Assembly (NCBI GenBank): GCA_965279315.1
Contig: OZ257145.1
Location: forward strand, 1,485,536-1,549,535
DNA length: 64,000 nt
Origin: Alphaproteobacteria bacterium
GTDB taxonomy: Bacteria > Pseudomonadota > Alphaproteobacteria > Micavibrionales > UBA2020
Reading direction: 5' to 3'
In this document: positions 9,698-46,675 of the stretch, piece after piece
How the letters are laid out: the number at the start of each line of letters is the position of its first letter
How positions within the stretch are numbered: position 1 is the first letter of the stretch
Made by a program: the position numbers and the translations under genes
The notes under the pieces: generated by a model
What the model was told of the DNA's origin: nothing
The model's input: the letters and a program-made list of their open reading frames with translations, nothing else
Database searches by the model: none

Positions 9698-10744
9698 TTA
9701 GAAGCGATAACCCAAGGTCACAGTGCCGAAAATTGACGGGTCGTCCTGCTTGTCGAATTCCTTCGTCCGGTACATCAGTGCATAGCTCAAACGTGTATGC
9801 CCGTAGGTAAACGCGATGCCCGCGCTGGCATCGCCGACGAAGAGTTTTTTATCGACGCTGTAGCTGTCGGCAAAGGTATTGCCGTCGAGGAAGATGTTAC
9901 GGGCGACGGCGCGGCCTTCGATGCCGCCGAACAGGTGCCAGCTGAACTGGCCGTCATCGACGATAAACGCGCCGGTGCCGGGCATGGCGGGGCGCACACG
10001 CGCCGGATCATCCTGAAACCGCCCCGAAGACGGGCTGAGGCGAAGCGACAGGCCTGCATTCGTATAAGTATAGATGTTGCCGAGCGTCACGCCGAAATGC
10101 GGCTCGACCCCTGCCGATAGCCCCAGCGGGCCTTCAAACCCGAAACGCTCCGGCCAGCGGCGCTGCCAGCTGAGCATCAAACCCGGCTCGTTCGACAATT
10201 GGTTGTCCCAACCGCGCGGGGTGGGGCTGTCGGATATATGTTCGTGCACGAAACTCTGCACCTGACGGCCCAGCGCTGCGGGACCGACGACGCCAACTGT
10301 CGCCTCCACCTCGTCGATATGGTTGTCGGTCACGCTGACCAGACCGGCGGAGGTGTAGAGGAACGCGGCCCAAGGCCTGTCATTCGGGTCCTGGGTGACG
10401 CGCGTGATGTCTTTGGGCGTATAAAGGTTATGACCGAGCGAATAGTAGATGCTGGTCGTCGGGTTGATCGAGAAAGTGGGGATCAGCCGGTCGATCACGT
10501 CGAAAATCTGCGGCGGGCGCTTGCCAAGGTCGAAATAGCTGATGCGCGCGCCATTCGTATAATTCTGGTCGGTGCCGCCGCCATACAGGTCGTTTTCGGA
10601 ATTGAGCGTAATGAATTTGCGGTCTTTCACATCGACTAGCCGCTGGGCGATCTGCTGCTGTAACGTTTCCTTCTCCTCCTCCGCGCGGGCGGGGGAGGCG
10701 AGCAGCAATGCGGCGAACAGGAATGTATAGATGACCGGTCTCAT
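9698..10744 (-). CDS. Outer-membrane lipid A deacylase LpxR-family (DUF2219-like) protein
   Basis: 348 aa from MRPVIYTFLFAALLLASPARA (signal peptide). SENDLYGGGTDQNYTNGARISY motif, alternating beta-strand-like C-terminus ending in F. Family is recalled, not searched. Confidence 0.6.
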   Translation of the reverse strand: MRPVIYTFLFAALLLASPARAEEEKETLQQQIAQRLVDVKDRKFITLNSENDLYGGGTDQNYTNGARISYFDLGKRPPQIFDVIDRLIPTFSINPTTSIYYSLGHNLYTPKDITRVTQDPNDRPWAAFLYTSAGLVSVTDNHIDEVEATVGVVGPAALGRQVQSFVHEHISDSPTPRGWDNQLSNEPGLMLSWQRRWPERFGFEGPLGLSAGVEPHFGVTLGNIYTYTNAGLSLRLSPSSGRFQDDPARVRPAMPGTGAFIVDDGQFSWHLFGGIEGRAVARNIFLDGNTFADSYSVDKKLFVGDASAGIAFTYGHTRLSYALMYRTKEFDKQDDPSIFGTVTLGYRF

Positions 10745-10809
10745 AACGCATCCTAACATGCGGGCGGGCTTTGGGTTCAACCGGTTCCCAAGAATTCGGG
10801 CAGTGATGC

Positions 10810-10846
10810 AAAAAAACAAGCCGCCCGGGTAAGGGGCGGCTTGTTT
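10810..10846 (-). terminator. Rho-independent terminator after gcvP
   Basis: AAACAAGCCGCCC / GGGCGGCTTGTTT stem, followed on the minus strand by T7, 17 nt after the gcvP stop. Confidence 0.65.
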
Positions 10847-10862
10847 CCGGATAATCAGTCGC

Positions 10863-13745
10863 TTATGCCGCCTCGGAATATGCCTCGATAGGCGGGCAGG
10901 CGCAGACAAGGTTGCGGTCGCCTGCCGCATGGTCGATGCGGTTGACGGGCGGCCAGTATTTATCACCGATCAGGTGCGCCGCCGGGAATGCGCCGTCGTG
11001 GCGGGAATAGGGGCGTTCCCACTTGTCGGCGGTCAGGTCACCCAGCGTATGCGGGGCGAGCTGCAGGGGGTTGTTGCCCTGCGGCCATATGCCTTTTTCG
11101 ACTTTCTCGATTTCCATGCGGATGACGGTCAGTGCCTCGATGAAGCGGTCCAGCTCCGCCTTGCTCTCGGATTCCGTCGGCTCGATCATCAGCGTGCCGG
11201 GGACGGGGAAAGACATGGTGGGCGCGTGGAAGCCGAAATCCATCAGGCGTTTGGCGATATCGTCGACGCTGATATTCGCGGAGGTTTTCAGCGGGCGCGT
11301 GTCGAGAATGCATTCATGCGCCACATAGCCGTTCTTGCCCTTGTAGAGCGTGACGTAATGCTTTTCCAGTTTCTTGGCGATGTAGTTGGCGTTCAGGATC
11401 GCCACCTGCGTTGCGCGCTTCAGCCCTTCCGTGCCCATCAGCGTGATATAAACCCACGAAATCGGCAGGATCGATGCCGAACCGTAGGGCGCAGCGGATA
11501 CAGGGCCAATCGCGTCTTCGCCGCCCACGCCGCCGACCAGCGGATGGCCGGGAAGGAAGGGAGCAAGGTGTTCGCCAACGCCGATCGGGCCCATGCCGGG
11601 ACCGCCGCCGCCATGCGGAATGCAGAAGGTCTTGTGCAGGTTCATGTGCATGACGTCCGCGCCGAACTTGCCGGGGCAGGCGAGGCCGACCAGCGCGTTG
11701 AAATTCGCGCCGTCCATGTAGACCTGTCCGCCGTTGTCGTGGATGATCTTGCAGATTTCGCGGATCTCTTCCTCGAACACGCCATGCGTCGATGGATAGG
11801 TCACCATCAGCGCGGCAAGCTTGTCCTTGTGCTGCTCCGCTTTCGCGCGCAGGTCGGTCAAATCGACGTTGCCATTTTCGTCGCAGGCGGTGATGACGAC
11901 CTCCATACCCGCCATCACGGCAGTTGCGGGGTTGGTGCCATGCGCGGAAGACGGGATCAGGCAGATATTGCGGTGCGACTGGCCTTTCGATTCATGATAG
12001 GCGCGGATGACCAGCAGGCCGGAATATTCGCCTTGGCTACCCGCGTTCGGCTGCAGCGTCACGGCGGCAAAGCCGGTCAGCGTGCAAAGCTTCGCTTCCA
12101 GATCTTTCAGCATCAGTTTGTAACCCTGCGCCTGATCGAGCGGCGCGAAGGGATGCATGTTGCCGAATTCGGGCCAGGTGACGGGGATCATTTCGGCCGT
12201 CGCGTTCAGCTTCATCGTGCAGGACCCGAGCGGGATCATGGAACGGTTGAGCGCGATGTCTTTCTGTTCCAGATGGCGGAGGTAGCGCAGCATTTCGGTT
12301 TCGGAACGGTATTGGTGGAAGGTCGGGTGCTGCAGGTATTCAGATGTGCGTTTCAGCGATTGCGGAATGGCATCCTGCACGCCCGCATCCAGTGCCTCGA
12401 CCGAAAAACCAAGCGCGCCCTTGCCGGAGAATACCTGCCACAGGCGGAAGACCTCATCGCGGGTGGAGCGTTCATCCAGCGACACGCCGATGCGCCCGTC
12501 GCCGAAATCGCGCAGGTTGATTTCCTTTGCCGCCGCGCGGTTCAGGATATCCTGCGCATGGCTGCCGGTATCGACCGTCACGGTGTCAAAGAAGCTGGCA
12601 TTGGTGGAGCTGAAACCAAGCTTGCGCAACCCTTCCGCGAAAATCGCGGCAAGGCGGTGCGTGCGGGTCGCAATCGTTTTCAGGCCTTCGGGGCCGTGAT
12701 ACACGGCATAGAAGGCCGCGATGTTCGCCAGCAGCACCTGCGCCGTGCAGATGTTCGACGTCGCCTTTTCGCGGCGGATATGCTGTTCGCGCGTTTGCAG
12801 GGCCAGCCGATAGGCTGCTTTCCCCTTTGAATCGACCGACACGCCGACGATGCGGCCGGGGATGGAACGTTTATAGGCATCCTGCGCGGCAAAGAATGCG
12901 GCATGGGGGCCGCCGTAACCCAGCGGCACGCCGAAGCGCTGCGCCGATCCGAACACGATATCCGCGCCCCATTCGCCGGGCGGTTTCAGCAGCGTCAACG
13001 CCAGCAGGTCGGTCGCAACGGCAACCGCGATATTTTTTGATTTCGCCTTCGCCGCAAGATCGCCGTAATCAACGACCGCGCCCGATGTGCCGGGATATTG
13101 CAGCAGGATGGCGAAACCGTCTTTTTCAATCAGGTCGCCGGCCTTGCCCACGACAACTTCGATGCCCAGCGGTTTCGCGCGCGTTTCCACAACCGCAATC
13201 GTTTGCGGGTGGCAGTCATCGGCGACAAGGAACACGTTGCTGGTGGACGAACCAACACGTTTCGCAAGCGTCATGGCTTCGGCGGCGGAGGTTGCTTCAT
13301 CCAGCATCGATGCGTTGGCGAGCGGCATGCCCGTCAAATCCATCGTGACCTGCTGGAAATTGATCATCGCTTCCAGCCGGCCTTGGCTGATTTCGGGCTG
13401 GTAAGGCGTATAGGCGGTGTACCAGCCGGGGTTTTGCAGCACGTTGCGCAAAATCACGTTCGGCGTGATGGTGTCGTAATAGCCCGCGCCGATCAGGGAG
13501 CGGTAGACCTTGTTCTGCTTCGCCATGCTTTCCAAAAGCGCCAGCGCATCGTGTTCCGTCATCGGCTCGCCGGTGGCGGGCGCCGATTTTTCGCGGATGG
13601 ATGCGGGCACGGCCTTGTTCGTCAGGTCGTCGAGGCTCGTCGCGCCGACGGTGCGCAGCATCGCGGCGATATCGGATTCAGAAGGCCCGATATGGCGGCG
13701 GATGAAATCGGTGCGTTGTTCAAGGTCCTGTATCGTCTGCGGCAT
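10863..13745 (-). CDS. gcvP: Glycine dehydrogenase (decarboxylating), single-chain P protein
   Basis: 960 aa, full-length GcvP-like sequence (FIRRHIGPS.., [11 protein letters not shown].., [19 protein letters not shown]-Lys region). ATG 13745 is chosen because ATG 13772 would overlap gcvH by 23 nt. Confidence 0.95.
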
Positions 13746-37369: not shown

Positions 37370-38623
37370 TTAACTGCCGAATTTCCGCTGGCTGTCATAG
37401 CCGAGGCCAAGCGCGACGGAGGACAGCTTGTTCTCCTCCGACAACACCGCATTCGGGAAGCGCGAACAGACGGCCTGTTTCAGCAGCGGCGTTTCGGTCG
37501 GCCCGCCGGTGAGGATGATGATTTCGATGTCGTCATCGCTCAACCCCGCGGTCGCCAGACATTCCGTGATCGATTCAGAAATCCGGTCCACATGGCTGGT
37601 GATTGCGGTGTTAAAAATCTCGCGCTGCACATCCAGCTTGAATGCGTTCTCGATAAAGCCCAGTTCAGCCGTGGTGCTGTCGCTGCCCGTCAGGTCGATC
37701 TTGGCGGCTTCGACCGATGACAGGATGCGATGGCCGAGTTCATGCTCGAGCGCATTGACGAAACGGCCAAAGCGTTTCGGCGCGTGCGATTCCGACAGGA
37801 TATCGCGCATGTCCTTTTTCACCTTCGGCGTATAGAGGAAATTTACCTTCGACCATTCCGACATATCATGGAACGGCGACAGCGGCACGTCGAAACGCTT
37901 CTCGCCATAGGTGCTGCGATAGCCGAAGGCGGGCATGAAACTGGAGAGGCTTAAAGATTTATCAAAATCATTGCCGCCGATGCGCACGCCCGAATGGCCG
38001 AGGATGTCCTGGCTGCGGTCGGCGCGGTTGATGTATTTTTGCGATACCTTGATGACCGTAAAATCCGACGTGCCGCCGCCGATATCCGCGACAAGGGCGC
38101 GTTTCTCGCCCGTCACTTTCACTTCATGCGCAAAGGCCGCCGCGACGGGTTCATATTGGAACGCGATATGTTTGAAGCCCGCCGCCGCTGCGATGCGCTG
38201 CAATTCGCCTTCCGCGCGCGCGTCGCCTGCGGGGTCGCCATCGATGAAATGGACGGGGCGGCCCATCACGGCATGGGTCAGTTCGTGGTTCAGCTGTTTT
38301 TCGGCGGTCGATTTGATATGGCCGATGAAATGACCGATGATGCCGTCGAAAGCGCGCATGCGGCCGTTCACCAGCGTGCCCTGATTCATCAGGCTGGTCC
38401 CGAGGATGCGCTTGAGGCTCCGCATAAAACGGCCTTCTTCCCCTTCAAAAAACAGTTTCTGCGCAGCACGGCCAAACGCGGGCAGGGGCGATGTGGCGGG
38501 ATAGAAAATCGCGCTCGGCAGCGTGTCGGCATCGCCCTCGACCTTCAGCAGGCGCGCGCCATCCTTATCGCCCAGTGCAATCGCAGAATTCGACGTGCCG
38601 AAATCGATGCCGCAGGGATGCAT
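37370..38623 (-). CDS. Hsp70-family protein (YegD-like putative chaperone)
   Basis: 417 aa. CGIDFGTSNSAIA phosphate-1 motif, ALVADIGGGTSDFTV phosphate-2 motif. No substrate-binding domain. Confidence 0.85.
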   Translation of the reverse strand: MHPCGIDFGTSNSAIALGDKDGARLLKVEGDADTLPSAIFYPATSPLPAFGRAAQKLFFEGEEGRFMRSLKRILGTSLMNQGTLVNGRMRAFDGIIGHFIGHIKSTAEKQLNHELTHAVMGRPVHFIDGDPAGDARAEGELQRIAAAAGFKHIAFQYEPVAAAFAHEVKVTGEKRALVADIGGGTSDFTVIKVSQKYINRADRSQDILGHSGVRIGGNDFDKSLSLSSFMPAFGYRSTYGEKRFDVPLSPFHDMSEWSKVNFLYTPKVKKDMRDILSESHAPKRFGRFVNALEHELGHRILSSVEAAKIDLTGSDSTTAELGFIENAFKLDVQREIFNTAITSHVDRISESITECLATAGLSDDDIEIIILTGGPTETPLLKQAVCSRFPNAVLSEENKLSSVALGLGYDSQRKFGS

Positions 38624-38676: not shown

Positions 38677-38710
38677 GAAAAACCCCGCTACTTTGCGGCA
38701 GCGGGGTTTT
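38677..38710 (-). terminator. Rho-independent terminator after the agmatinase-like gene
   Basis: CCCCGCT / AGCGGGG stem (38683-38706), followed by T5 on the minus strand. Confidence 0.6.
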
Positions 38711-38733: not shown

Positions 38734-39651
38734 TTACGCGATCTTTTTCGTGCGCGTCTTGATCTTCTTCGCAAGGAAGGCATAGCTCATGATTTTATAG
38801 GCAAGCTTGGCGGCGAGGAAGTCGCAGCCATGCATGTTGGGCTTGGGCGCCAGTTCGTTCACATCCGCGCCGATGAAGGTCGAGACCTTTGCGACTTCGC
38901 GGATAATGTTGACCGCGTCATCCCAGAACAGCCCGCCCGGTTCAGGTGTGCCGGTTGCGGGGATCATGCTGGCATCGAAGGCGTCGATGTCGAAGGTGAC
39001 ATAGACGTTCTTGCCCTTGAAGTTGCGCACGATCTCCTTCATGTCCCACAGGTGCTTTTCGCGCGCCCAGTAGATTTTCAGGCGCTTTTTGTTCTTTTCC
39101 AGGAACGGGATTTCGCCGGAGGAAATGTTGCGGATGCCGAAGGAATAGACGCTGACATTCGCGGGGTCCATCGTGCGGCAGATGGCGGAGGCGTGGGAAT
39201 AATGTTCGCCATGGTATCCGTCGCGCAAATCGGCATGCGCGTCGAAATGCAATACCGCCACATCCTTGAAATTGCGCGCATAGGGGCGGATCGCGCCTGC
39301 CGTGATCGAATGTTCGCCGCCGAAGACGAAGGGGAATTTGCCCATCGCCAGCACTTCTTCCACCTGCGCGTCCAGCTGTTCCAGCGCGGTCTCGACCGAT
39401 TTGGAAATTTTCACAGGCTTGGCGGTGACCACGCCGTATTCGCGGAACGGCTCGCTCCAGAATTCGTCGTCGAACAGCTCGACCTGATGTGATGCGTTGA
39501 TCATCGCGGCGGGGCCTTTCGACGTGCCACCGCCATAGGACACCGAAGCCTCGAGGCCGAAGGGGATGACGACGACCTGCGCGTTATCGACGCTGAAAGC
39601 ATCCGCTTTCTCAAGGCCGAGGAAGCCGTCGGCGGGTTTCATGAACTGCAT
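38734..39651 (-). CDS. Agmatinase / ureohydrolase (SpeB family)
   Basis: 305 aa from MQFMKPADGF (AGGA 9 nt upstream). Mn-site motifs GGEHSIT, HFDAHADL, TFDIDAFDASMIPATGTPEPGG. Confidence 0.85.
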   Translation of the reverse strand: MQFMKPADGFLGLEKADAFSVDNAQVVVIPFGLEASVSYGGGTSKGPAAMINASHQVELFDDEFWSEPFREYGVVTAKPVKISKSVETALEQLDAQVEEVLAMGKFPFVFGGEHSITAGAIRPYARNFKDVAVLHFDAHADLRDGYHGEHYSHASAICRTMDPANVSVYSFGIRNISSGEIPFLEKNKKRLKIYWAREKHLWDMKEIVRNFKGKNVYVTFDIDAFDASMIPATGTPEPGGLFWDDAVNIIREVAKVSTFIGADVNELAPKPNMHGCDFLAAKLAYKIMSYAFLAKKIKTRTKKIA

Positions 39652-39652
39652 C

Positions 39653-40276
39653 TTAAAATTCCTTTCGGTTGCCTTTGTCATTTTTTTGCGCGAGCCAGAC
39701 GGTGCGGCCGCCGCAATCGGTATCTGTCAGGTTTAGGACAATAACGCTAAATCCGTTGTTTTCAAGCAGCGTTTTATATTCGTCCACGGAAAGGCTGGCA
39801 TGGTGGATGTCATGCCCCTCCATGCTGCCATAGATTTCGCCATCTTCCGTTCCGGTATTGAACAGCAGCACTGCGCCATCGGCGGCATGCGCGGCGAAAG
39901 TGGCGAACATGGCGCGCTGGTCGTCGCGGGTCAGGTGGAAAAAACTGTCCCAAGCGAGGATGGCATCGTATTTTGCGCCCAAAGCGGTTTTGCGGATATC
40001 GCCCACCTGCCAGTCATGGCCGGGGAAGCGTGATTGCGCGAGTTCAATCATGCGCGGCGCGATATCGATGCCGGCCACCTTGAAACCGTTCGCGATAAAA
40101 AACGCCGCCATCGGCTCCGCACTGCCGCAGCCGAGGTCCAGCAGGCGGCCTTCGGGCTTTGCGAGCTTCAGCACATGGTCGAGGTATTTCCTCTCGATCA
40201 GCGTCTTGTTGCGCGCATTGTCGAACCAGTCGGCGATCTGCTGGTATTGCGCGGCGACTTCGGTATTGCGGGTCAT
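39653..40276 (-). CDS. Class I SAM-dependent methyltransferase
   Basis: 207 aa. Motif I LLDLGCGSAE, post-I GIDIAPRM. Confidence 0.8.
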   Translation of the reverse strand: MTRNTEVAAQYQQIADWFDNARNKTLIERKYLDHVLKLAKPEGRLLDLGCGSAEPMAAFFIANGFKVAGIDIAPRMIELAQSRFPGHDWQVGDIRKTALGAKYDAILAWDSFFHLTRDDQRAMFATFAAHAADGAVLLFNTGTEDGEIYGSMEGHDIHHASLSVDEYKTLLENNGFSVIVLNLTDTDCGGRTVWLAQKNDKGNRKEF

Positions 40277-40698
40277 TCTTCGATCATGCCGCTGCCCGCC
40301 GAAATGGCAAGGAAGGCGTCGCGGTCGATGTTCACATGGGGGCCGAGGTCATAGGTGTCGAGATCCTCGATCGGCACCCAGACGAATTCCGAATGTTCCG
40401 GCGTCAGCTTGACGTTTTCGCCGAGCGGGCGGCAGAGATAGGCGAGGTTGAGCAGCGGCTGCCCCTCGCGCTTGCCGGTGCGGGCGTTAAAAATCTGCAT
40501 CACGTCGATTTTCAGGCCGGTTTCTTCCTTGTATTCGCGGGCGAGCGCCACTTCGGGCGCTTCGCCATGCTCGACGCCGCCGCCGCAGAATTCCCAGCCG
40601 ATAAATTCCGATCCGGGTGCGGGCGCGCGTTTCAGCAGCAATACCTGACCTTCGTCGTTCATCAATACGCCAAGGGCGCGGACATTGAATTGAGCCAT
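40273..40698 (-). CDS. NUDIX hydrolase
   Basis: 141 aa. Complete Nudix box GGGVEHGEAPEVALAREYKEETGL. Overlaps the methyltransferase start by 4 nt. Confidence 0.85.
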   Translation of the reverse strand: MAQFNVRALGVLMNDEGQVLLLKRAPAPGSEFIGWEFCGGGVEHGEAPEVALAREYKEETGLKIDVMQIFNARTGKREGQPLLNLAYLCRPLGENVKLTPEHSEFVWVPIEDLDTYDLGPHVNIDRDAFLAISAGSGMIEE

Positions 40699-40712
40699 CT
40701 TAATATTCCTTC

Positions 40713-40755
40713 AAAAAGATTTCCGGCCGGGGCTTTTAAGGGCTCCGGCCGGAAA
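40713..40755 (-). terminator. Terminator/attenuator-like hairpin between the DHS-like and NUDIX genes
   Basis: TTTCCGGCCGG / CCGGCCGGAAA stem, followed by T5 on the minus strand, 16 nt after the DHS-like stop. Confidence 0.45.
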
Positions 40756-40770
40756 ATTTCATTCACGCGC

Positions 40771-41838
40771 TTACTTGAACAGCTTGTTCCAGTTGCGGCG
40801 CGGGCGTTTTTTCCAGTAGCCGCGATGGTAAGCGTCGGATGCCAGCAGCGGCATGACCGAGCCTGCTTCCGCGAACACCATCTGTTCCAGTGCAACGTCC
40901 ACTTTGCCCCAGCTGCACGCTTCCTTCAGCGTGGAGGAGGAGCAGGCGCCGTCGCGCACGTCGGCGATGGTGATCTGGACCGCGTATTTGTGCATATCGA
41001 CATCCTTGTGGCCGAGGATCTCAGCGCAGACAACGGTGTCCTGCGTGAAGTTCTTGGGCACGCCGCCGCCGATCATCAGCAGGCCGGTGGTGCCGGCCGC
41101 GATTTTCACGTCGGTCAGTTCGCGGAAATCCGCAACCGCGTCGATGCACATATAGTTCTTCGGGTTTTTCTTCTGGTGCAGCACAAGGCCGAAACCGGCG
41201 GAAGAATCCACGAATGCCGGGCAGAAGATCGGCACGCCGTGCTCATAGCACGCCGCGATCAGCGAGTTTTTCTTCTTCGCTTTTTTCACCAGGTACTTGC
41301 CCATTTCCCAGATGAATTCGCGCGACGAATAGGGGCGGCGCTCGAGGCCTTGCGCGATTTCGAAGATCGTGTGGTCAACGGCCTGCAGGTCTTCTTCATC
41401 GATGTATGTGTCGTAAATGCGGTCGATATAGAGGTCGCGCAGCTCGCGGTCATCAACCTGGCTATCTGCACGGTAATGCTTGAAGCCGAGCGCTTCAAAG
41501 AAGTCCATGTCCACGATGGATGCGCCGGTTGCGACGATCACGTCGACCATGTTGCTCTTGACCATTTCCGTGTACAGGTCCATGCAGCCGCCGGCCGAGG
41601 TGGAGCCCGCGAGCGTCAGGATGGATGTCGCGCCCTTGTCCTGCAGCATGGTGTTGAAAATGTCGGTCGCGCGCGATAGGTCGCGCGAGGTGAAGGACAT
41701 TTTGCCCATGCCGTCGATGATCGGGCGTGCATCGAATTTCTTGATGTCGATATGCTCGATCGGGGTATTCAGCAACGCCGCTTTGCGGTTGCTTTTCGGG
41801 TGGGGCTTGGCTTTCACGGCTTTCAGGTTGCTTTTCAT
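40771..41838 (-). CDS. Deoxyhypusine synthase-family protein (bacterial DHS-like, candidate homospermidine-type synthase)
   Basis: 355 aa, DHS-like throughout (ILTLAGSTSAGG, DVIVATGASIVDMD, MIGGGVPKNF, VQITIADVRDGACSSSTLKEACSWGK). Confidence 0.85.
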   Translation of the reverse strand: MKSNLKAVKAKPHPKSNRKAALLNTPIEHIDIKKFDARPIIDGMGKMSFTSRDLSRATDIFNTMLQDKGATSILTLAGSTSAGGCMDLYTEMVKSNMVDVIVATGASIVDMDFFEALGFKHYRADSQVDDRELRDLYIDRIYDTYIDEEDLQAVDHTIFEIAQGLERRPYSSREFIWEMGKYLVKKAKKKNSLIAACYEHGVPIFCPAFVDSSAGFGLVLHQKKNPKNYMCIDAVADFRELTDVKIAAGTTGLLMIGGGVPKNFTQDTVVCAEILGHKDVDMHKYAVQITIADVRDGACSSSTLKEACSWGKVDVALEQMVFAEAGSVMPLLASDAYHRGYWKKRPRRNWNKLFK

Positions 41839-41940
41839 GTTCGTAGTCCTTTTTTATCAATCTGCCCTGCGCGTTTCAGGCCGCTCCTGTTGCAAGGAGT
41901 GGCCCGAAATGGGTTTTACGCGGTCAATTTGTGGCGAAAA

Positions 41941-43140
41941 TTATCCCGTCACGCAGAGTTCGTTTGAATCCGTCGTTTCCAGCGCGTCATCGTAGAGCGT
42001 GACCAGCGGCGGGGCCTTGACGGACACGACTTCATGGGCGGAAAAGCCGTTGAAGTCGGTACGCATGGTGTTCCCATAGGCGCCGAGCTGGCCGATCTCG
42101 ATGTAATCCCCTTCCCGGACGTCTTCCGGCAGGTAAAAGGGGCCAGGCATATAATCAATGCTGTCGCAGGTGGGCCCGTAGAAACGGAAACCCTTGTGCG
42201 GCGCACTGGTGCCTCCCGGCGTCGGACGGATGAGACGAACCGGGTAACGGAAACCCAGGTGGCCTGCGTCGAACAGGCTGCCATAGGTTCCATCATTAAT
42301 GTAAAGGACATCGTCCTTGCGAAGTTCAACCTGCACGACGACCGAGGCGCTTTCCGCGACAAGCGCGCGGCCGGGCTCGCACCAGAACTCGTAGCGGTCC
42401 GGGTGGGGCAGGGTGTTGAAGCCCTGGTCGATGGCGGTTTTGTAGTCGGCAAGCGCAGGGGGCGCCATGTCGGGATAGATCGACGGGAAGCCGCCGCCGA
42501 TATCGATGACATCGACGCGGGTGCGCGGGATTGCGCGCAGGATGCCACCCACGATGTTCAGTGCCGCCACATATGCGGCAGGGTCCATGGTTTGCGAACC
42601 CACATGGAAGCAGATGCCCAGCTTGCGCGACAGCTTGCGCGCCATTTTCAGGATCTCCGGCGCCTTTTCAGGCAGGCAGCCGAACTTGCCCGCGAGCGGC
42701 AGCTCCGACGAGGTATTAGGGACGGCGAGGCGCAGGTACAGGCCGAGGTCTTTCGACTTGCCGGTGCAGGCGACGATCTTTTCCAGCTCCTCGACCGAGT
42801 CAAAGGAGAAGTCGCGGACGCCGAAATCGAAATACGCCTGTTCGATGGCATGGCGGCTTTTCACCGGATGCATGAACGCGATGTGGGAGCCGGGCGCAAT
42901 CTCGTTCACCAGCTGGATTTCGGGGATGGAGGCCGCGTCAAAGTGCTTGATGCCCGCATCGCGCAAACCGGCCAGCACGTATTTGGCAGGGTTCGCCTTG
43001 ACGGCGTACAGCACATGGCCGGGGAAATTCTCGAGGAACCACTTGGCAGAGGTTTCAAGCGAAGCCGGACGGAAACAGGTAACGGGAATATTGGGACGTC
43101 GCTGGCGGACTACGTCTTCGGGGCCTTCGTATTTTTCCAT
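41941..43140 (-). CDS. Type III PLP-dependent ornithine/lysine decarboxylase (Orn/DAP/Arg decarboxylase family 2)
   Basis: 399 aa. PLP-Lys motif VLYAVKANP, DIGGGFP, CEPGRALV, GPTCDSID. Confidence 0.85.
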   Translation of the reverse strand: MEKYEGPEDVVRQRRPNIPVTCFRPASLETSAKWFLENFPGHVLYAVKANPAKYVLAGLRDAGIKHFDAASIPEIQLVNEIAPGSHIAFMHPVKSRHAIEQAYFDFGVRDFSFDSVEELEKIVACTGKSKDLGLYLRLAVPNTSSELPLAGKFGCLPEKAPEILKMARKLSRKLGICFHVGSQTMDPAAYVAALNIVGGILRAIPRTRVDVIDIGGGFPSIYPDMAPPALADYKTAIDQGFNTLPHPDRYEFWCEPGRALVAESASVVVQVELRKDDVLYINDGTYGSLFDAGHLGFRYPVRLIRPTPGGTSAPHKGFRFYGPTCDSIDYMPGPFYLPEDVREGDYIEIGQLGAYGNTMRTDFNGFSAHEVVSVKAPPLVTLYDDALETTDSNELCVTG

Positions 43141-43296
43141 TCCATGAAACCCTCCTGGGGGCTTTCATGAGATAACCGCACGCGAATCGTTCGCTGCCGT
43201 GCCCTCATAATTAACGTTATAGGTTGATTCGATTCAATGTAAAGAATTTTTGAAATATCAGCGGCTTTGGGGCTTTCACATCGTGTTACAAAATCT

Positions 43297-44874
43297 TCAC
43301 GATGCCGGTTTTGGCTGCATCGGGCGCGGTAGTGGAACCATGATCGTGCGCGGGATGTTCTTGAGCGCGGGCTCGACCGCCGCGATGTCGACGCCGTGGC
43401 GCGCATTGGCCGCAACATAGTCGATTTTCCGCACATCGGTGATAAAAGTCTGCTGCAGCTTGGTCATCAGCACGGGCAGGGCGGCGTTGTCGGGCTGCAG
43501 CTTGATGCCGTCCATCAGCGCGGTCTGCAGCGCGCCATAGGCGCCGATCATGGTCTGGGGCGTGATCTTGCCATAGAGGGCGAAAGCGCGCTCCTGCAGC
43601 ATGGCGCTGGCGTTCCAGGCGCGCACCCTGGCCAGCCCCGCCTTTTCCTTGTCGGTCAGCGGGGCGTCGCCCTGCGGGCCGCGCTTGGCGGCCTGTTCGG
43701 CGGCAGTGACGGTGCGGCGGAATTCCTGCGCGCGGATGAAATCGGGGTCGGCACCGGCCAAAATCTTCAGGGTGCGGAGCTGCGCAGGCGTCTTCGCATC
43801 CTCCAGCATGACGGTATAGCCCACGATGCTGCCGGTCAGTTCCTTGGCGTCCATGATTTTAAAGTAAAACGCCTGCGCCTGGCTGTCGTTCATGGCGCGG
43901 AAGGCGGGCAGGCCCATTTTCACAATCTGGCTTTTCATCTCCGCCAGCACGGGCGGGGAGAAGTGGAGCGGGTCGCCCACCAGCTTTTTCCGCCAGTCCG
44001 ACACCGCGTCGATGGCGGTCAGGTCGGCCTTGCCCGCGCGGATCAGGTCGCCGATCCCGCCCACATCCGCCAGCGCCTCCTTGTTGTACCGCAGGGCGAT
44101 AAATTCCCGCACGGTCGCGCTGTTGCGGGCGGCGTTGGGCTTTTTCAGTTCCTTGTCCATCGCGTCCTCGTCAAACCCCTGCATCGGGTAGCGGGAGTCG
44201 AGGCAATGCCAGGATTCATGCGTGTTCACAAAGGCGATTTTCTGCTGGAGCGTCATGCCCGGCATGGTGAAGGGCAGGGCATGGCCGGAGGACGGGACGA
44301 TCACGCAAGCCTCGCCCGCCGCACCCGTCTGGTTGAGGAAGGCGGCAGGGTTCTGGGTTTTCACGAGGCCGAAGGCGAATTTGTGGAAGTTCGCCATGTT
44401 CCCCGCCACGATGCGTGCACGGCTGGGCTCGAACTCCACATTTTGCTCCCCCAGCATCATCTGGACGATGGCAACGGCGGGCAGCCCCAGCGCGGTGCCG
44501 GCATCGAAACGGGCGGGGTCGAGCACCACGGCGCGGTCATGCAGCCCGTGCATGTGCTGGAGGCTCAAGGTCAGGCGTTCGCTGAAGACGTTCAGGTCGC
44601 GGGAATAGGTGTCGCCGGTCTGGATTTTGGATGCCATGAATTCGGTGCGGGCGGCGTCGATCAGGGCGATCCGCACCTCCATGCTGTATTCCAGCGCGCG
44701 CAGGTCGGGCGGGGCGGTTTCGGTCACGGCAGCCGTATTGCCGTTCGGGGCGGCAGGCGCGCCGGTTTGCGCGACGGCAGGCGTCATCCCGCCCAGCAAG
44801 ATGGTCGTCAGCGCGGTCGATGCCGCGAATTTTCGCCAGACGCCCGACAGCGTGCCTTTGCGGGTGAGGCTCAT
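43297..44874 (-). CDS. Exported hypothetical protein with an HExxH motif, paralogue A
   Basis: 525 aa. Signal-like ..ASTALTTILLGGMTPAVAQT. ACVIVPSSGHAL, FVNTHESWHCLD, YNKEALADVGGIGDLIR. Aligns end-to-end with the upstream gene. Confidence 0.6.
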   Translation of the reverse strand: MSLTRKGTLSGVWRKFAASTALTTILLGGMTPAVAQTGAPAAPNGNTAAVTETAPPDLRALEYSMEVRIALIDAARTEFMASKIQTGDTYSRDLNVFSERLTLSLQHMHGLHDRAVVLDPARFDAGTALGLPAVAIVQMMLGEQNVEFEPSRARIVAGNMANFHKFAFGLVKTQNPAAFLNQTGAAGEACVIVPSSGHALPFTMPGMTLQQKIAFVNTHESWHCLDSRYPMQGFDEDAMDKELKKPNAARNSATVREFIALRYNKEALADVGGIGDLIRAGKADLTAIDAVSDWRKKLVGDPLHFSPPVLAEMKSQIVKMGLPAFRAMNDSQAQAFYFKIMDAKELTGSIVGYTVMLEDAKTPAQLRTLKILAGADPDFIRAQEFRRTVTAAEQAAKRGPQGDAPLTDKEKAGLARVRAWNASAMLQERAFALYGKITPQTMIGAYGALQTALMDGIKLQPDNAALPVLMTKLQQTFITDVRKIDYVAANARHGVDIAAVEPALKNIPRTIMVPLPRPMQPKPAS

Positions 44875-46466
44875 AATCCCCTTCCTTTCGCGCGGAAGGG
44901 TTTCAGGGCGGGGTCGGCCGCCACGATATCGACGCCGCGTTTCAGGTTGGCCTCGACGTAATCGGTGTCCTGCACCCGCCAGACGAAACTTTCCTGCAGC
45001 TTGGTCATCTGCGCGGCATAAAGCGGGTTGCGGGGGTCTGATCTGGTATGGGCATGCAATTCATCCTGCAGTGCGCCATAGGCCGCAGCGAGCGTCACAG
45101 GCGTGATGCGGCCGCTATCCTTGAACGCGCGGTCCTCCAGCAGTTGCGCGGCGTTCCAGCTGCGCAACGCGCCTGCCAGTTTGATCTCGGCGGATGATAG
45201 CGGCCCTGCGCCGGGGTCGGCCGGCTTTTGCCAGTAATACTGGAAGAAATCGATGGCCTTGGCGGCTTCGGGATCGGTCTTGGCGGCCTCCAGCCATTGC
45301 AGGCGTTCGGGCACGGTGCCTTTTTCCAGCTTCAGGTTGATCTGGAGGCTGCGGGCGCTCATGCCGTACTGGTCGGTCACGTCGAAATACAGCTGCTTTG
45401 CCGCCGCATCGTCGAGACGGTGGAAGGCGTCGATGCCCATCTCGTCAATCTTCGCCTTGAAGCCGTGCAGCACGGGCGCGCTCAGGTGCTGGATGTCGTT
45501 GGGATAGCGCATCCGCCACGCCACGATTTTGTCGATCAGGCCGGTGTCATAGCCATCCTGCCGGATCATGTCGCCGATTGCGCCCACATCGGCCACCGCC
45601 TCTTTCCGGTACTCCATCGCGAAAACGCCGAGCGCGGTCAGGTTGGCGATCTTGGACATCAGTGTGCCTTGCGGCACCGCCGCCAGTTTTTTGGGATCGA
45701 AGCTGCGCAGCGTGTATTTATCGTCAAGGCAGTGCCAGCCTTCATGGCGGTTGGTGAAATTCACCTGTTCGCGCGCGTTCAGGCCGCGAATATCGATCGT
45801 CAGCGCGTGGTCGGATGACGGCACGATGACGCAGGCGGCGGGGTGCGTGCGGCTGGTGTTCATCATGGCGAAGGGGTCTTGGGAAAAGGTCTGCACGCCA
45901 TACCGGAAGGCATAGGGCGCGGCGGCCTTGCCCGCAACCGTCTCTGCCATCTCGCCCGTCGGCGTCAGTTTTTGTTCGGTCAGCAGTAAGCGCACGGCCT
46001 GCGGCGCACTAAAGCCGAGCGCCATCGCCACATCGAACTTGCCGGGGTCGATCACCAGCACGCGGTTGTGGATATTGGCGCGGTCGGATTTCAGGAACCG
46101 CGTCAGCCGGTCCTGCAGCCCGTCCAGTTCCTGCGAATAGCTGCCGCGATTGTTCAGTTTCAGCACCTCGCGCCGCGCCTGCTGCATCAGGGCGGCATTG
46201 ATGCGGGCGCGCCGTGCCTCTTCCTTGGCCGGCAATATAACAATGTCGTCCATATCTATTGTCCGGGTGGCGTCATCGCGCGGCGGGGGATCGGCGCTGC
46301 CGGGTGCGCCGGCGTCCTCGATCTTCTGCGTATGATCTGGCTTCGGCACGCTGGTGCAGCCTGCGGCCGCAAGGCTTGCGCCCAAGGCGGCACGGCGCAC
46401 GAAAACCCACCATGACGATGTCAGGCTGGTGGTCTTTTTCAGCGATGTGACGTCTGTTTTCGCCAT
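44871..46466 (-). CDS. Lipoprotein-like hypothetical protein with an HExxH motif, paralogue B
   Basis: 531 aa from MAKTDVTSLKK. ..GASLAAAGC lipobox-like. ACVIVPSSDHAL, FTNRHEGWHCLD, YRKEAVADVGAIGDMIR. Its stop overlaps the paralogue A start (ATGA). Confidence 0.6.
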   Translation of the reverse strand: MAKTDVTSLKKTTSLTSSWWVFVRRAALGASLAAAGCTSVPKPDHTQKIEDAGAPGSADPPPRDDATRTIDMDDIVILPAKEEARRARINAALMQQARREVLKLNNRGSYSQELDGLQDRLTRFLKSDRANIHNRVLVIDPGKFDVAMALGFSAPQAVRLLLTEQKLTPTGEMAETVAGKAAAPYAFRYGVQTFSQDPFAMMNTSRTHPAACVIVPSSDHALTIDIRGLNAREQVNFTNRHEGWHCLDDKYTLRSFDPKKLAAVPQGTLMSKIANLTALGVFAMEYRKEAVADVGAIGDMIRQDGYDTGLIDKIVAWRMRYPNDIQHLSAPVLHGFKAKIDEMGIDAFHRLDDAAAKQLYFDVTDQYGMSARSLQINLKLEKGTVPERLQWLEAAKTDPEAAKAIDFFQYYWQKPADPGAGPLSSAEIKLAGALRSWNAAQLLEDRAFKDSGRITPVTLAAAYGALQDELHAHTRSDPRNPLYAAQMTKLQESFVWRVQDTDYVEANLKRGVDIVAADPALKPFRAKGRGL

Positions 46467-46675
46467 TACATCCGGTCGTTCAATAAAAAAGCGATTTATA
46501 ACCGCCTGAATCTCCAAGGGGAATCATCCGAGCCTATATTATACTATACATAATTAAGGATTCGTGTATTATGTCGAACGCTTGACCAAAAACATATTGA
46601 AAAATAACGATTTTTCAATAGGATGCAGCGCAACAAAACAACAATAACGACTCAAAACGATTCAGGGCGGAAAAT

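Follow-up and report, generated by a model that had tools for sequence, protein, structure and literature searches.

A predicted agmatine-dependent homospermidine gene cluster with interposed Nudix hydrolase and methyltransferase genes in a Micavibrio-like lineage

A five-gene array from an uncultured Micavibrio-like bacterium places a Nudix hydrolase gene and a SAM-dependent methyltransferase gene amid three genes with apparent roles in polyamine metabolism, raising the questions of which polyamine it produces and whether the two interposed genes take part in its synthesis. We consider it probable that the array encodes the agmatine-dependent ("diagmatine") homospermidine pathway and that the Nudix and methyltransferase genes are lineage-specific accessories that lie outside the synthesis itself.

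Gene families and layout of the cluster

An ORF check of the window, namely the entire 64,000-nt stretch of DNA that was analyzed, recovers all five genes on the minus strand, as the first-pass annotation had proposed. The 4-nt overlap, the 1-nt gap, the hairpin with a T-run past the second gene and the terminator at 38677-38710 that it had described are likewise all present. The family of each of the five proteins is confirmed by Pfam and NCBIfam profile matches:

43140..41941, minus strand: ornithine decarboxylase (ODC)-like gene, 399 aa (PF02784 and PF00278)
41839..41940, minus strand: spacer between the ODC-like gene and speY, 102 nt, with a stable stem-loop but no T-run
41838..40771, minus strand: speY (DHS-like), 355 aa (NF002699, PF01916)
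40712..40755, minus strand: terminator-like hairpin and T-run, directly past the speY stop codon
40698..40273, minus strand: Nudix gene, 141 aa (PF00293 and a complete Nudix box)
40276..39653, minus strand: class I SAM-dependent methyltransferase (MT) gene, 207 aa (PF13489 and related families)
39651..38734, minus strand: speB-family ureohydrolase gene (arginase/agmatinase family), 305 aa (TIGR01230, PF00491)
38677..38710, minus strand: intrinsic terminator closing the cluster, a 13-bp G+C-rich stem followed by TTTTT

The Nudix and MT genes share the 4-nt overlap (ATGA, 40276-40273), and the ATG of speB lies 1 nt past the MT stop codon. An alternative in-frame speB ATG is present at 39681; the start that yields 305 aa is the one used by orthologs such as that of locus L167. 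The gene order is no chance arrangement, since an ortholog of the ODC-like gene adjoins speY, directly upstream of it, in 145 of 160 related loci, with a 102-nt gap between the two in the window. A speB gene directly downstream of speY is found in 16 of the 160 surveyed loci.

The core enzymes and the predicted route to homospermidine

SpeY scores 565.4 bits against the NCBIfam equivalog NF002699 (cutoff 500), with 334 of the 338 profile positions covered, and also matches PF01916. Its K312, which lies in the motif KEACSWGKV, corresponds to the lysine that forms the enzyme-imine, namely the catalytic K329 of human deoxyhypusine synthase (HsDHS) and K299 of CdmS. F216 and C299 occupy the positions of HsDHS D243 and D316, where CdmS has F204 and L286, and E306 is equivalent to the guanidyl-binding E293 of CdmS. 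The numbering of the human sequence used for these equivalences proved self-consistent. Eukaryotic and archaeal DHS share with SpeY the Pfam DS fold, the NAD-dependent mechanism and the catalytic Lys, Trp and Glu of the E-A-x-S-W-G-K motif. However, a canonical deoxyhypusine synthase was rejected as a candidate, given that Phe and Cys stand where HsDHS has D243 and D316 and that the scores fall far under the DHS equivalog cutoffs (279 bits for the best of these, NF002006, versus a cutoff of 434). To our knowledge, the eIF5A/aIF5A target of such an enzyme is absent from bacteria. The constellation of F216, C299, E306 and K312 fits the CdmS-specific pattern set out in PMC10981699, and SpeY is predicted to be an NAD-dependent DHS homolog that joins two molecules of agmatine.

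A route of this kind, through SpeY/CdmS, has been published (Kobayashi et al. 2024, Sci Rep, PMC10981699; Li et al. 2026, JBC, PMC13625781), and comprises, in order, an arginine decarboxylase (ADC), a diagmatine (caldomycin, G44G) synthase and a diagmatine ureohydrolase. All tested SpeY homologs convert agmatine to G44G (PMC13625781). In the window, the ODC-fold decarboxylase would turn L-arginine into agmatine, SpeY would join two agmatines via an enzyme-imine on Lys312 to give N1,N9-bis(guanidino)homospermidine (G44G, diagmatine), and the SpeB-family ureohydrolase would then strip both guanidino carbons as urea, leaving sym-homospermidine. The window has all three enzyme families in common with the published system, together with the CdmS-type substitutions in SpeY; Rhodothalassium salexigens has the same cluster of an ODC-fold decarboxylase gene, speY and speB in the same order (PMC13625781), and the alphaproteobacterium-like host of the window fits the co-occurrence statement of that study. 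The window differs from this system in the Nudix and class I MT genes between speY and speB, neither of which is mentioned in PMC13625781, in the terminator-like hairpin that splits the cluster, and in its origin from an uncultured Micavibrio-like clade. The bacterial homospermidine synthase (HSS) likewise uses NAD and yields homospermidine, but it is non-homologous to SpeY and putrescine-dependent, and the HSS and SpeY routes are mutually exclusive (PMC13625781). Thus, the proposal of the first-pass annotation that a bacterial DHS homolog and a SpeB-family ureohydrolase form homospermidine via agmatine gains support from both the SpeY signature and the published route. Its remark on such an enzyme pair in Thermus was correct (PMC10981699), the route having later been generalized (PMC13625781), and its description of the pathway as an unusual one has to be dropped, given that the route is known from these two studies.

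The first protein of the array is a PLP-dependent decarboxylase of the alanine-racemase (AR) fold and the ODC family, with K48 as its PLP-binding lysine, and keeps the equivalents of K69 (LYAVKAN), D332 (NDGTYGS) and C360-D361 (GPTCDS) of TbODC. At the D332 position it has Asp, whereas the chlorella virus enzyme, the one ODC-fold ADC known to have been studied structurally, has Glu, and hence no sequence signature separates ADC from ODC for the window protein. With the viral enzyme, and with the alphaproteobacterial ADCs of this fold from Ca. Fonsibacter ubiquis, R. salexigens and Rhodopila globiformis, it has in common the AR fold, an ODC-like sequence and a genomic context calling for agmatine. 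The label of ornithine decarboxylase initially given to this protein should most likely be replaced by that of an arginine decarboxylase giving agmatine, since SpeY enzymes take agmatine rather than putrescine, and since the assayed alphaproteobacterial ODC-fold enzymes that adjoin speY are arginine-specific. Those of the SpeY-encoding Ca. Fonsibacter ubiquis and R. salexigens act on arginine only (PMC13625781).

The SpeB homolog scores 195.1 bits against TIGR01230 (cutoff 174.3) and matches PF00491, and the Mn-ligand motifs GGEHS, DAHAD and DIDAFD...GTPEPGG are kept in all SpeY-linked SpeB orthologs. Two SpeY-linked SpeB enzymes have been assayed and found to be G44G-specific (PMC13625781), and by analogy with these we infer that the window protein, earlier labeled agmatinase-like, is most likely a diagmatine (G44G) ureohydrolase yielding homospermidine and two molecules of urea.

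A conventional reading of the same three genes would have the first encode a true ornithine decarboxylase, with its putrescine passing to a homospermidine synthase that is DHS-like, and would make the SpeB homolog an ordinary agmatinase. Such a reading can draw on the best solved-structure matches of the decarboxylase, which are lysine/ornithine and ornithine decarboxylases, and on its retention of the TbODC D332 and D361 equivalents. We nevertheless regard it as very improbable: every assayed SpeY homolog turns agmatine into G44G and none gives homospermidine without an agmatinase-type enzyme (PMC13625781), the window SpeY lacks both of the aspartates, D243 and D316 in HsDHS, to which the amino groups of spermidine or putrescine bind, a canonical agmatinase would destroy the substrate of SpeY, and the assayed ODC-fold enzymes from SpeY-encoding alphaproteobacteria are arginine-only. 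Read as an agmatine-dependent pathway, the core cluster would extend this route to an uncultured Micavibrio-like lineage and fits the published prediction that an ODC-fold gene adjoining speY is really an ADC, an outcome that confirms earlier work more than it surprises.

The Nudix and methyltransferase genes between speY and speB

The Nudix protein scores 82.9 bits against PF00293 and possesses a complete Nudix box, G40-x5-E46-x7-R54-E55-Y-K-E58-E59-T-G61-L62 (consensus GX5EX7REUXEEXGU), as well as a GWEFxGG motif. It is predicted to be a minimal MutT-like Nudix hydrolase encoded by a lineage-specific accessory gene. MutT, NudI and NudG are its nearest solved sequence relatives (E-values of 1e-9 to 1e-11, below the equivalog cutoffs). 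Assignment to a named Nudix equivalog (MutT, NudI, NudG, RppH or NudB) was rejected, with scores of 20-49 bits versus cutoffs of 95-259. The family is tiny, all its members found so far sit between speY and speB, and two of them have lost the catalytic EE.

The MT protein is a class I SAM-dependent methyltransferase that probably acts on a small molecule, and it is encoded by a clade-restricted accessory gene. In its SAM motif I (LDLGCGxG), L46-D47-x-G49-C50-G51 are invariant, and all the top fold matches of its AF2 model (pLDDT 94.9) are class I methyltransferases. Its nearest solved relatives by fold are the amino-sugar N-methyltransferases CalS10, TylM1 and DesVI (TM ~0.7, rmsd 4.5-5.5 Å, identity only 17-21%), and amine N-methyltransferases are also its top sequence neighbors. 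More than 4000 proteins, spread over many phyla, belong to the family. Agrobacterium, Spirosoma and Azospirillaceae have homologs that are ~50% identical and reside in unrelated gene contexts, and one fusion of an MT to a GNAT domain lies within an island of amine-modifying enzymes.

Among the 160 surveyed SpeY loci, the Nudix gene is found in none and the MT gene occupies the slot in five, each of which belongs to the same clade as the window. In other lineages, neither gene is linked to SpeY at any of more than 150 loci. Within the window's Micavibrio-like clade the slot takes four states:

Neither gene: L001, L003, L004
MT only: L002, L005, L082-84, L173
Nudix only: L161
Nudix and MT: the window, L162-L168

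The sister genomes thus carry neither, one or both of the genes, and close relatives that lack one or both retain the three core genes, implying that the pair is clearly dispensable for the pathway and forms no obligatory step of it. In L002 and L173, speB is gone and the MT gene still stands beside speY. In-slot MTs occupy one sector of the tree, and their identity has fallen to 48%, against 84% or above for SpeY, suggesting that the MT has long resided next to speY, in L002 and L173 as well. Both the Nudix and MT genes are under purifying selection, with dN/dS values versus L167 of 0.032 and 0.14 respectively; the corresponding values are 0.035 (SpeY) and 0.015 (SpeB). The suggestion of the first-pass annotation that these genes hint at an extra step thus gains little and uneven support: they are linked to the pathway and under purifying selection within this narrow clade, but unlinked beyond it, which goes halfway toward the refutation that the annotation itself had named. 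We infer instead that they are passengers, which would share the expression of speB as lineage-specific accessories rather than as steps in homospermidine synthesis.

It is conceivable, although in our estimate unlikely, that both are true parts of an extended pathway in which the MT transfers a methyl group to a nitrogen of agmatine, diagmatine or homospermidine and the Nudix protein supports this step, the product being a methylated polyamine specific to this clade of predatory bacteria. Several observations weigh against an accessory role and point in this direction. Tight translational coupling with speB, co-transcription with it, and strong purifying selection on both genes are equally expected of functional partners; the MT is kept beside speY across the clade, even where speB is missing; the Nudix family is so far known from this slot only; the top fold matches of the MT (CalS10, TylM1, DesVI, CypM, MtfA and NmbA) are amine N-methyltransferases; and the MT-GNAT fusion occurs among amine-modifying enzymes. 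These have to be set against the more than 150 SpeY loci of other lineages with neither gene, the close relatives without both (L001, L003, L004) or without the MT (L161), the wide spread of the MT family with no polyamine neighbors elsewhere, the generic nature of its fold similarity (TM ~0.7 at less than 22% identity) and the loss of the catalytic EE in two Nudix proteins. An Hsp70-like gene is equally syntenic, so that synteny in a narrow clade is weak evidence, and a bacterial polyamine N-methyltransferase of the MT type was not found in the literature searched. Polyamine N-methylation by the MT may occur but is unsupported. That this clade has extended the diagmatine pathway, with the MT N-methylating agmatine, diagmatine or homospermidine and the slot-restricted Nudix protein acting in the same process, seems quite unlikely to us; were it the case, the MT would be the first enzyme of this fold to N-methylate polyamines in bacteria.

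Even less probable, and in our view exceedingly so, is a self-contained Nudix-MT module for an unrelated nucleotide-linked substrate, such as an NDP-amino compound or a damaged or modified nucleotide, that landed in a permissive intergenic slot. The 4-nt overlap of the two genes, the dTDP-amino sugars that are substrates of the nearest MT structures, the MutT/NudI/NudG-like character of the Nudix protein with its GWEFxGG motif and the variable occupancy of the slot would all accord with such a module. However, the MT was in the slot ahead of the arrival of the Nudix gene, the MT-only states being the more divergent, the two genes also occur apart (L161, L005), and sugar-nucleotide genes are absent nearby in the clade loci examined. 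Should the pair modify the polyamine, it would define a tailoring step that is new, along with a Nudix subfamily that is likewise new, whereas the accessory status that we favor would make the two genes an example of passengers lodged between a leaky terminator and one of the genes of a pathway.

Hairpins and transcription of the divided cluster

The probable start of transcription lies upstream of the decarboxylase gene. The 102-nt spacer that follows this gene contains the stem-loop without a T-run (MFE -30.5 kcal/mol, z -2.8). The hairpin past speY has a stem of 16 pairs, 10 of them G-C (40755-40720), followed by TCTTTTTG on the coding strand (MFE -25.5 kcal/mol, z -2.7), and a hairpin with a T-run recurs at the same position in 12 of 14 clade loci examined, in two sequence types. 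We take it for a partial terminator, an attenuator or a 3' structure that stabilizes the mRNA, and it would probably let only part of the transcription pass. It ends 14 nt ahead of the Nudix start codon, an interval too short for a promoter, and the Nudix and MT genes, placed between this hairpin and speB, would be translationally coupled to the latter. The terminator past speB (~38710-38677) has an MFE of -23.9 kcal/mol (z -3.7).

A probable diagmatine pathway at the core of the cluster

The cluster comprises five minus-strand genes, each of which was assigned to its family by a profile match:

43140..41941, minus strand, AR-fold Orn/DAP/Arg decarboxylase (ODC-like)
41838..40771, minus strand, deoxyhypusine-synthase (DHS) family protein (speY)
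40698..40273, minus strand, Nudix family protein
40276..39653, minus strand, class I SAM-dependent methyltransferase (MT)
39651..38734, minus strand, arginase/agmatinase family protein (speB)

On inspection of the sequence, the Nudix and MT genes overlap by ATGA and a single base separates the MT stop from the speB ATG. A 16-bp hairpin lies 3' of the speY stop and is followed by TCTTTTTG (z -2.7 versus shuffled controls), and a 13-bp G+C-rich hairpin with T5 lies 3' of speB (z -3.7 versus shuffled controls). The open reading frames, families, overlap, gap and both hairpins are thus as placed in the first-pass annotation.

The three-gene core formed by the decarboxylase, SpeY and SpeB is a new instance of a known, recently published pathway. 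In Thermus, the DHS homologue CdmS converts two agmatines to caldomycin (N1,N9-bis(guanidino)homospermidine, also called diagmatine or G44G), from which a SpeB-type ureohydrolase produces homospermidine (Kobayashi et al. 2024, PMC10981699). SpeY homologues of many phyla all produce G44G, the SpeY-linked SpeB enzymes hydrolyse G44G and not agmatine, the assayed ODC-fold enzymes from SpeY-encoding alphaproteobacteria have arginine as their sole substrate, and in Rhodothalassium the three pathway genes form a single cluster (Li et al. 2026, PMC13625781). The homospermidine route via a DHS homologue and SpeB that had been proposed for the window matches this published pathway, and also agrees with the residue pattern of its SpeY. 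This protein scored below all deoxyhypusine synthase models in the profile search. Its alignment to human DHS (with a numbering that reproduces K329, D243, D316, H288, E323 and W327), with which an archaeal DHS alignment is consistent, indicates retention of the catalytic Lys (K312) and the guanidyl-binding Glu (E306), with F216 and C299 in place of the two spermidine-binding Asp residues. At the latter positions CdmS has F204 and L286, and by this comparison the window SpeY shows the CdmS pattern.

The SpeB homologue exceeds the agmatinase equivalog cutoff (195 bits versus 174) and has complete metal-ligand motifs, in a form common to every SpeY-linked orthologue examined. Its earlier labeling as an agmatinase therefore holds at the level of the family, but as the assayed SpeY-linked SpeB enzymes spare agmatine (PMC13625781), it is probably a diagmatine ureohydrolase. 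Similarly, the decarboxylase, earlier called an ornithine decarboxylase, is confirmed as an AR-fold member of the ODC family, but pathway logic and the published assays suggest that it is probably an arginine decarboxylase (ADC). It retains the PLP lysine, the active-site Cys-Asp pair (TbODC C360 and D361 equivalents) and the Asp equivalent to TbODC D332; as these last three are all kept, the alignment was uninformative as a residue signature and sequence alone cannot tell ADC from ODC.

Phyletic patterns of the Nudix and methyltransferase genes

Homologues of all window proteins were located by tblastn in 160 SpeY loci, 80 from GTDB species genomes and 80 metagenomic. The ODC-like gene adjoins speY in 145 of these, and speB directly follows speY in 16. 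None of the 160 loci contains a homologue of the window Nudix protein, and only five (L002, L005, L082-84) have an MT homologue in the slot between speY and speB, all belonging to the clade of the window (SpeY identity at least 84%; labels Micavibrio or Alphaproteobacteria MAGs). Linkage of the two genes to the cluster is confined to this one narrow clade, in which synteny extends over the entire neighbourhood.

The Nudix family itself is very small: a word-indexed search recovered 13 clusters at 53-94% identity before a drop to ~40%, and an exhaustive HMMER search found a single representative at E ≤ 1e-30 among 1.84 billion representatives. In every readable genomic context (L161-L168) it lies between the DHS-family gene and an arginase-family gene. 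The MT family is large, with >4000 matches, and its members at ~50% identity, from Spirosoma, Agrobacterium, Azospirillaceae and Elusimicrobia, have neighbours with no relation to polyamines. One family member (P0199; L171 5001-6029) is fused to a GNAT acetyltransferase. The island around it includes an APH/choline-kinase-like gene, an NTP_transf_2 gene and several GNATs, and resembles a locus modifying small-molecule amines.

Within the clade, the slot, taken as the space from the speY hairpin to the next conserved gene, is found in four states.

Slot states among the window and related loci (L numbers)
Empty: L001, L003, L004
MT only: L005, L082-84; also L002 and L173, without speB
Nudix only: L161
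Nudix and MT: window, L162, L163/164, L165, L166, L167/168

In a neighbor-joining tree all in-slot MTs fall in one sector of the MT family, which is consistent with a single insertion long ago, after which the gene diverged and was lost from some loci; the Nudix gene would then be a later arrival in the sub-lineage closest to the window. The sub-lineage of L002 and L173 keeps the ODC-like gene, speY and MT, the last of which adjoins or overlaps the Hsp70-like gene that follows the cluster. Neither speB nor an agmatine deiminase was found in the available sequence of these two loci (17 kb for L002), and none of the extra genes of L001 and L002 proved to be a displaced copy of either.

Against the closest relative, L167 (dS ~0.3-0.5), dN/dS is 0.015 for SpeB, 0.032 for the Nudix protein, 0.035 for SpeY, 0.11 for the ODC-like protein and 0.14 for MT. 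Selection thus maintains both the Nudix gene and MT as functional genes in the window lineage.

Possible roles of the accessory genes

In the Nudix protein the Nudix box is complete and is led into by the GWEFxGG motif of the MutT type. Among proteins of solved structure it is closest to NudI, MutT and the CTP pyrophosphohydrolase NudG, and it reached no cutoff among the equivalog profiles. A function as an NADH pyrophosphatase or in NAD salvage, raised in the first-pass annotation, is unlikely given these best matches and its minimal MutT-type domain: at 141 aa it is too short for the extension that the NudC architecture includes beyond this domain, and SpeY, following DHS chemistry, recycles its own NAD within the catalytic cycle. 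Two members of this slot-restricted family, P0129 and P0130 (L166 778-1209), have REYK(T/K)KTG in place of REYKEETG and have lost the catalytic Glu-Glu, with the reading frame intact.

The two genes had earlier been read as a hint of an extra pathway step. Such a step would be a true tailoring role, for instance in N-methylation. The AF2 model of MT is confident (pLDDT 94.9), and its best PDB fold matches are the amine N-methyltransferases CalS10, TylM1, DesVI, CypM, CcbJ, MtfA and NmbA. At TM ~0.7 and 17-21% identity the modeled fold is compatible with an amine substrate without establishing one, and several uncharacterised structural-genomics methyltransferases match it equally well. Literature searches for a bacterial polyamine N-methyltransferase or methyl-homospermidine returned only plant alkaloid work, and those for Micavibrio polyamines returned no paper; the 2026 pathway paper (PMC13625781) makes no mention of Nudix or methyltransferase genes. 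Sister genomes do without both genes, and the putative secreted-protein paralogues and Hsp70-like gene flanking the cluster are just as syntenic in the clade, making a tailoring role rather unlikely. The cluster is best viewed, with reasonable though not complete confidence, as the known pathway accompanied by dispensable, lineage-specific accessory genes.

Transcription signals and flanking genes

Loci across the clade have a T-run hairpin immediately 3' of the speY stop, and its sequence is of two unrelated types. This speaks for a conserved function, either in partial termination or in stabilising the end of the transcript. As just 14 nt lie between the hairpin and the Nudix start in the window, expression of the downstream genes would depend on read-through or on a promoter within speY. 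A scan for an internal promoter serving Nudix, MT and speB gave 4 promoter-like matches versus 2.5 ± 1.4 in shuffles, which is no excess, and none in the hairpin-to-Nudix interval. When the 36-46 kb interval was scanned against Rfam for riboswitches or leaders, the only match was a sub-threshold one to a nematode sRNA, dismissed as chance. Upstream of the cluster, a near-consensus sigma-70-like promoter (43216-43243, minus strand; TTTACA, 16 nt, TATAAC), missed by the consensus scan because its -10 hexamer has a final C, lies ~75 nt from the decarboxylase start codon. Further downstream, the decarboxylase gene and speY are separated by a 102-nt spacer (41839-41940, minus strand) that folds as a stable stem-loop without a T-run (-30.5 kcal/mol, z -2.8).

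Upstream of the ODC-like gene lie two tandem paralogues (43297-44874 and 44871-46517, minus strand; 525 and 548 aa, 36% identical over 456 aa), with homologues in this position in the whole clade. They have no Pfam or NCBIfam match, and share an N-terminal signal-like segment and a HExxH-like HE(S/G)WH motif; to judge from these features they may represent a novel secreted metalloprotease. On the other side, the next gene on the same strand is always the Hsp70/YegD-like gene (37370-38623, minus strand), which at 278 bits stays under the NF008673 cutoff of 331. In L001, which lacks both accessory genes, M50-peptidase-like and ankyrin-repeat genes (10125-12676) are inserted between this gene and speB on the opposite strand.
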